Part shown: positions 1 through 828 of the stretch, one piece after another
How the letters are laid out: each line of letters starts with the position of its first letter
Numbering within the stretch: the first letter of the stretch is position 1
Virus record (IMG/VR): IMGVR_UViG_2695420687_000007
Span: 1 to 5,177 of that record
Strand: one strand, 5' to 3'
Source of the DNA: a virus
Lineage: Duplodnaviria > Heunggongvirae > Uroviricota > Caudoviricetes
Length of the DNA stretch: 5,177 nt
Program-made: the position numbers and the translations under genes
Notes under the pieces: generated by a model
Database searches by the model: none
Told to the model about the DNA's origin: nothing
What the model saw: the letters and a program-made list of their open reading frames with translations, nothing else

Positions 1-45
1 ACCTATTGCCGATAAACGCTGGACTCACGAGCAAAAAGAGCGTCT

Positions 46-828
46 TTGCCAAAGCCGCTGGAGTATCACACAAAAACTGGTGGAGAGAAAGATCGTGATG
101 ATATCGTAACGCGTGCTTTTGCTGCGGGGGTTAATGGGCTGCTCATCACCGGTACTAACTTGCGCGAAAGCCAGCAGGCGCAAAAGCTGGCGCGGCACTA
201 TCCGCGCTGTTGGTCAACGGCGGGCGTGCATCCTCATGACAGCAGTCAATGGCAAGCTGCGACCGAAAAAGCGATCATTGAGCTGGCCTCGCAGCCAGAA
301 GTAGTGGCGATTGGCGAGTGCGGCCTCGACTTTAACCGCAACTTTTCCACGCCGGAAGAGCAAGAACGAGCCTTTGTCGCCCAGTTGCGCATTGCTGCAG
401 AGTTAAATATGCCGGTATTTATGCACTGTCGTGATGCCCACGAGCGATTTATGACGTTGCTGGAGCCGTGGCTGGATAAACTGCCTGGCGCAGTGTTGCA
501 CTGTTTTACTGGTACGTGCGAAGAGATGCAGGAGTGCGTGGCGCGTGGGATTTATATCGGCATTACCGGTTGGGTTTGCGACGAACGACGTGGACTGGAA
601 CTGCGGGAACTGTTGCCGTTGATTCCGGCGGAGAAATTACTGGTTGAGACTGATGCGCCGTATTTGCTCCCACGCGATCTCACTCCGAAGCCATCGTCAC
701 GGCGCAATGAACCCGCGAATCTTCCCCATATTCTGCAACGCATTGCACACTGGCGTGGGGAAGATGCTGCGTGGCTGGCGGCAACTACAGATAACAACGT
801 TAAAACGCTGTTTGGGATCGCGTTTTAG
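46..828 (+). CDS. tatD: TatD-family Mg-dependent 3'-5' exonuclease/DNase; N-terminus atypical
   Basis: ORF track 46..828 (260 aa), TTG start; no in-frame ATG or GTG between the frame-1 stop at 13..15 and the conserved core. From KDRDD (nt 88) to the C-terminal TLFGIAF the protein matches my recollection of E. coli TatD at roughly 90 percent identity. The first 14 codons do not match the expected MFDIGVNLTSSQFA, so the start is uncertain. Stop TAG at 826..828. Confidence 0.85.

Follow-up and report, generated by a model that had tools for sequence, protein, structure and literature searches.

TatD of Escherichia is a 3'-5' exonuclease of single-stranded DNA and RNA, described by the equivalog model PRK10425 and the Pfam family TatD_DNase (PF01026). 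Its locus has a regular layout in the ten genomes closest to the DNA studied here (4.5-4.9 Mb; nine complete chromosomes and one draft contig): all ten loci that we read carry ubiD, rfaH, tatD, tatC, tatB and tatA in normal order, and all ten encode a TatD that starts MFDIGVNL(T/S)SSQFAKD. YfcH, an epimerase-like oxidoreductase of the TIGR01777 family, belongs to a different region, yfcH and tatD not being adjacent in E. coli genomes. Also relevant here are misjoined short-read contigs, which commonly show base-exact switches between distant loci, joins inside genes and an absence of mobile-element ends, and in which ambiguous bases at the joins, several joins per small contig and a similarly affected sister assembly are common as well.

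We analysed a window of 5,177 nucleotides (the whole stretch of DNA under study) whose first open reading frame encodes most of a TatD. Residues 15-260 of this protein are normal, differing from their counterparts in the ten close genomes by 1-4 amino acids, with K75E the sole difference for three of them. The surrounding tatD-rfaH block (87-1320) is 99.0-99.35% identical to the same genomes by local BLAST, and about 88.5% identical to E. coli. In contrast to the Escherichia locus, the first 14 codons of tatD are absent, and out-of-frame yfcH DNA stands in their place. That yfcH DNA closely resembles its E. albertii counterpart, being nearly identical over the residues encoded by nt 2-85, yet it amounts to only 28 codons, has neither the start nor the end of the gene, and runs out of frame into tatD.

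Composition of the contig

An exact-protein look-up with the products of the tail fibre (1610-3562) and tail fibre assembly (3564-3977) genes matched the window to a public record, CDRK01000751.1 of draft assembly GCA_000936005.1; the entire 5,177-bp record corresponds to the window and has the same gene layout. The assembly appears to be very fragmented, as its accession number makes this record 751. Searching the literature for the assembly and WGS accessions returned nothing. The isolate is probably Escherichia albertii or a very close relative, to judge from a single exact match among GTDB genomes and from identities of about 88-94% to E. coli.

Local BLAST against fetched loci, together with breakpoint alignments, divided the contig into five pieces with four joins, drawn from loci that are unlinked elsewhere: yfcH, tatD-rfaH, an alpha-amylase-family gene, a P2-like prophage and mutY. 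The features are as follows.

1-85, plus strand: internal fragment of yfcH, without its own start or end (BLAST and TIGR01777 match)
84-87, no strand: yfcH-tatD join (comparison of record and window; breakpoint alignment)
87-828, plus strand: tatD without its first 14 codons (PRK10425 match; DNA identity to ten genomes)
46-828, plus strand: predicted chimeric open reading frame of 260 aa with a TTG start (open reading frame list; also called on the public contig)
825-1313, minus strand: complete rfaH, 162 aa (exact protein in many genomes; DNA identity 99.0-99.35%)
1320-1323, no strand: second join (native rfaH upstream sequence stops at 1320; N at 1322)
1321-1524, minus strand: interior part of a glycosyl hydrolase gene of the alpha-amylase family (by DNA similarity to an E. 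coli gene so annotated)
1525-5087, plus strand: P2-like prophage segment (identity to the prophages of loci L003-L007 and L010)
5088-5177, plus strand: internal fragment of mutY (BLAST and PRK10880 match)

The terminal pieces are only 85 nt (yfcH) and 90 nt (mutY) long, and the amylase-family piece measures 204 nt. Each join falls within a gene or just beside one. The breakpoints are direct switches that share at most 1-3 bases, with no element sequence between the pieces, and the alignments of the four joins revealed no IS ends, att sites, target-site duplications or repeats. We also considered an origin from restriction sites or cloning and rejected it: none of the common restriction sites lies at a join, and the GATC at 91-94 lies 4-5 nt inside tatD.

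Compared base by base, window and record differ at four positions, 84, 86, 1322 and 1383, at each of which the window has A and the record N; the Ns were evidently replaced by A when the window was prepared. The first join (84 and 86) and the second (1322, 2 nt away) thus carry N in the record, and the joins at 1524|1525 and 5087|5088 do not. Position 1383 is inside the colinear amylase-family fragment, which shows that Ns also occur away from joins.

The 5' end of tatD

The initial annotation had placed the start of recognisable TatD homology at about nt 88, and both the protein match and the DNA identity profile bear this out, changing at 87/88. Read from K15 (nt 88), the protein aligns with PRK10425 positions 15-259 out of 260 (E 1.7e-148), and residues 15-260 score 492.9 bits, above the model's cut-off of 395; the Pfam TatD_DNase match begins at residue 13 of the predicted frame. 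Nucleotide 87 is the last base of codon 14, and codon 15 begins at 88. Downstream, the locus keeps its native form. The rfaH gene overlaps the tatD stop by 4 nt in convergent orientation, as in native loci, and 7 nt of native rfaH upstream sequence are retained, up to 1320; the exact RfaH protein occurs in many genomes, its gene lying between tatD-tatC and ubiD.

Upstream of the join, PRK10425 positions 1-14 (MFDIGVNLxSSQFA) and the preceding tatC are not encoded, the DNA there being yfcH. When aligned with native tatC-tatD of the nearest genome, the window matches 10/10 in every 10-nt bin from 91 on and only 1-4/10, a random level, in the bins of 1-80. The sharp collapse of identity that the initial annotation had proposed looking for is therefore present, the flip against nearest-genome tatC-tatD taking place within one 10-nt bin.

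Nucleotides 1-85 have a clear source. By blastn, nt 1-95 match one place per genome in all 5,426 E. coli genomes, always inside yfcH, at 93-94% over 1-84, which corresponds to nt 207-290 in this gene of 894 nt. Among GTDB representative genomes, the 26-mer at nt 56-81 matches exactly only once, in E. albertii NBRC 107761. Against yfcH of this type strain, the window is identical and colinear at 84 of the 85 positions, followed by complete divergence. The coding frame of nt 1-85 is frame 2, whose peptide matches positions 68-95 of the 292-position TIGR01777 model. The locus on the type-strain contig, NZ_BBMY01000011.1, stops about 590 nt past the matched site, near the yfcH 3' end, and in E. 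coli the gene after yfcH is rpnB, a member of a repeated family; the 3' region of yfcH may be a natural break point for contigs in short-read assemblies.

The switch from yfcH to tatD is sharp and lies within nt 84-87. The record reads G-G-N-G-N-G at 82-87 (more widely, ...CTGGTGG-N-G-N-GAAAGATCG). At this point yfcH reads ...CTGGTGGAG|TTAATT, its continuation past ...CTGGTGGAG being TTAATTAACGCC, and native tatD reads ...CAATTTGCG|AAAGATCG. The two genes differ at position 84 (A in yfcH, T in tatD), share a G at 85 and differ again at 86 (T in yfcH, C in tatD). The Ns at 84 and 86 thus fall exactly where the two sources disagree, with the common base between them left intact, a pattern that points to a consensus or scaffold step overlaying two unrelated ends without spanning reads.

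We found the junction nowhere else. When 5,426 complete E. coli genomes were searched by megablast with nt 1-400, tatD aligned only from nt 87, at 88.2%; among the 5,415 genomes with a match to nt 1-400, none (0/5,415) had one place covering at least 80% of it, and the median was two separate places per genome. A junction 30-mer, with A at the N positions and hence blind to other bases there, had no match among GTDB representative genomes, and a search of metagenome contigs with N at 84 and 86 was also negative.

The frame-1 stop at 13-15 and the TTG at 46 noted in the initial annotation are both present, the TTG being the first start in this frame and standing 14 residues before KDRDDIV. The 46-828 frame is an annotation artefact, its first 14 codons consisting of out-of-frame yfcH DNA and the N-containing join. 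The "E" at codon 14 is a residue that was never sequenced, since the record has N there, not A. The TTG at 46-48 sits exactly at the offset of the native tatD ATG, which is probably a coincidence; as a consequence the chimeric frame has the native length of 260 aa and looks normal in length-based checks. Exact look-up of this frame and of the 235-aa chimeric frame described below in a protein-to-contig index gave no match, likely because their deposited versions have X wherever the DNA has N. We attribute the missing N-terminus to the contig and not to the organism, and infer that the real TatD of the strain starts MFDIGVNL(T/S)SSQFA. There is nothing unusual about residues 15-260 as a TatD family member or about nt 1-85 as a piece of yfcH, and neither implies anything new.

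The other pieces and the sister contigs

Over 1318-1520 the window is about 76% identical to the interior of an E. coli gene whose annotation is alpha-amylase family, a 2,253-nt CDS on the minus strand that adjoins glaH. The 71-aa peptide of 1321-1524 had no NCBIfam or Pfam match, and the amylase-family identity of the fragment is assigned from DNA similarity to the annotated E. coli gene. By chance the fragment is in frame with rfaH, producing a spurious 235-aa open reading frame on the minus strand (825-1532).

The prophage segment (3,563 nt) comprises the 3' end of tail protein I, tail fibre gene H (1610-3562), tail fibre assembly gene G (3564-3977) and, from 4110, the first 978 nt of FI, which encodes the tail sheath. 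Identity to the L003-L007 prophages, which adjoin pflB-focA in other genomes, is 99.9%. Native prophage sequence diverges past 5087, where mutY is fused in frame to the truncated sheath gene to give an open reading frame of 4110-5177. The mutY part (5087-5177) is 91.2% identical to E. coli mutY, and its peptide, from the helix-hairpin-helix region, matches PRK10880 at positions 110-138 of 351. The initial annotation had suggested that the first ~87 bp might be foreign and mirror the 3' end of the window; this proved correct, nt 1-85 being yfcH and the last 90 nt mutY.

Only three recorded contigs encode the exact tail fibre assembly protein: CDRK01000751.1, CCBU01001135.1 (L011) and the 40.5-kb contig L010. 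CDRK01000751.1 is not simply a redundant junk copy, because the tail fibre assembly gene of its assembly was found only there. L010 comes from an independent assembly (run ERR738819; the isolate may differ) and is 100% identical to window positions 2239-5087; where the window switches to mutY, L010 goes on with the rest of a normal sheath gene, followed by P2 tail genes. L011 (2,642 bp; assembly GCA_000940615.1) shares 1,895 nt of prophage DNA with the window at 100% identity and is a second patchwork, joined at different places from pieces of about 170-430 nt, with no Ns. It runs from lon codons 1-76 through a 61-codon piece of ilvH (codons ~6-66, opposite strand) and P2 H-G-FI to unrelated DNA. 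The non-prophage parts of L011 are 1-603 and 2499-2642, the latter being unassigned DNA with a short open reading frame.

Origin of the joins

We conclude that the odd 5' end of tatD is very probably a chimera of assembly, scaffolding or library preparation, with a join that is not present in the genome. Rather than arising in the cell, the joins appear to stem from in silico steps (mis-scaffolding, gap closing or mis-resolution of the assembly graph) or from library molecules that were chimeric. Five DNA pieces from unlinked places in the chromosome would have been joined end to end in the draft assembly of an E. albertii-like isolate, with 85 nt from mid-yfcH placed against tatD at codon 14/15. 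With no base-level support at this join, the assembler or consensus step would have written N where the two sources disagree, and the gene caller would then have taken the TTG at 46, the first in-frame start in the out-of-frame yfcH DNA, to yield the 260-aa chimeric "TatD". That L011 is also a mosaic, and that L010 continues normally past 5087, indicates that the problem is technical and systematic. At the first two joins, the Ns suggest an origin in consensus building or scaffolding; the third and fourth joins, which lack N, together with those of L011, point to chimeric reads or graph errors, and a pure scaffold gap is insufficient to explain them. A wet-lab origin, in which molecules joined by fragment ligation or PCR template switching during library preparation were then faithfully assembled, has a minority share of the probability: it is one form of the preferred explanation, and its share is part of the probability given to that explanation and not an addition to it. 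It is favoured by the lack of N at 1524|1525, at 5087|5088 and anywhere in L011, by very short pieces on the scale of reads or inserts (85, 90 and 204 nt; ~170-430 nt in L011), and by the same syndrome around identical phage DNA in two assemblies, but the Ns placed exactly at source disagreements (84, 86) look like the work of consensus building or scaffolding where no reads span the join. The finding falls within a familiar kind of artefact, the misjoined short-read contig, from which it differs in having two joins without N.

The deposited sequence does contain the yfcH-tatD join, and the contig is built from genuine genomic DNA and carries the only copy of the tail fibre assembly gene found for its assembly; both facts would fit a real chromosomal rearrangement, in which illegitimate recombination, deletion or inversion fused mid-yfcH to tatD codon 14/15, removed the tatC-proximal DNA, and inactivated or re-headed tatD. 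We consider this very unlikely, as it needs four independent illegitimate joins within 5.2 kb without IS, att or repeat, two of them bearing Ns, and as a second assembly is similarly patchworked at different positions, the locus is normal in close relatives, and the junction was seen nowhere else among E. coli, GTDB representatives and metagenome contigs. That the yfcH-tatD join, and perhaps the others too, is real, the E. albertii isolate having undergone multiple illegitimate recombinations that shuffled short gene fragments and left a tatD with a new N-terminus expressed from the TTG, strikes us as extremely improbable. The initial annotation had instead considered the frame-3 peptide a possible relic of DIGVNLTSSQFAK, displaced by an indel of ~34 bases and a +1 frame change that would make tatD a pseudogene. 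The peptide does have LTS...FAK residues in common with the TatD N-terminus MFDIGVNLSSSQFAK, and their BLOSUM62 local alignment score of 22 was matched in only 1.5% of shuffles (73/5,000). Among peptides encoded by 90-nt stretches drawn at random from the contig, 0.9% also reached this score, and tails of 0.9-1.5% are not significant when any of three frames and any register may be chosen; the resemblance is at chance level. No TatD-derived DNA lies upstream of nt 85-87, where nt 1-80 are at random-level identity to native tatC-tatD, and the near-perfect yfcH identity of nt 1-85, with coding in frame 2, refutes the relic, whose probability we regard as negligible. Both the frame-1 "N-terminus" and the TatD-like frame-3 peptide are explained as yfcH read out of frame. 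An N-terminally remodelled tatD or pseudogene as the state of the strain is likewise unlikely in view of the Ns at the join, the three further joins and the canonical start in the closest genomes. Among the three alternatives that had been offered, foreign 5' DNA thus stands, and indel or frameshift and remodelling do not.

Consequences for annotation

The importance of a misjoined contig of this kind is one of data hygiene only. CDRK01000751.1 contains false joins, and much of GCA_000936005.1 and GCA_000940615.1 probably does too. Such joins yield chimeric open reading frames, here the 260-aa "TatD", the 235-aa amylase-RfaH and the sheath-MutY frames, which find their way into protein databases, where they may pass for gene fusions, pseudogenes or novel N-termini. 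The clearest warning sign, ambiguity at two joins, was hidden by the substitution of A for N.

Between tail genes S and V (~6280-7880 in L003 coordinates), the related intact L003-L007 prophages carry a Y1-transposase gene of the IS200/IS605 type (PF01797) and a divergent 357-aa gene with no Pfam match. Their baseplate proteins W/J measure 109/185 aa in L003 and L007 vs 115/302 aa in L004-L006.
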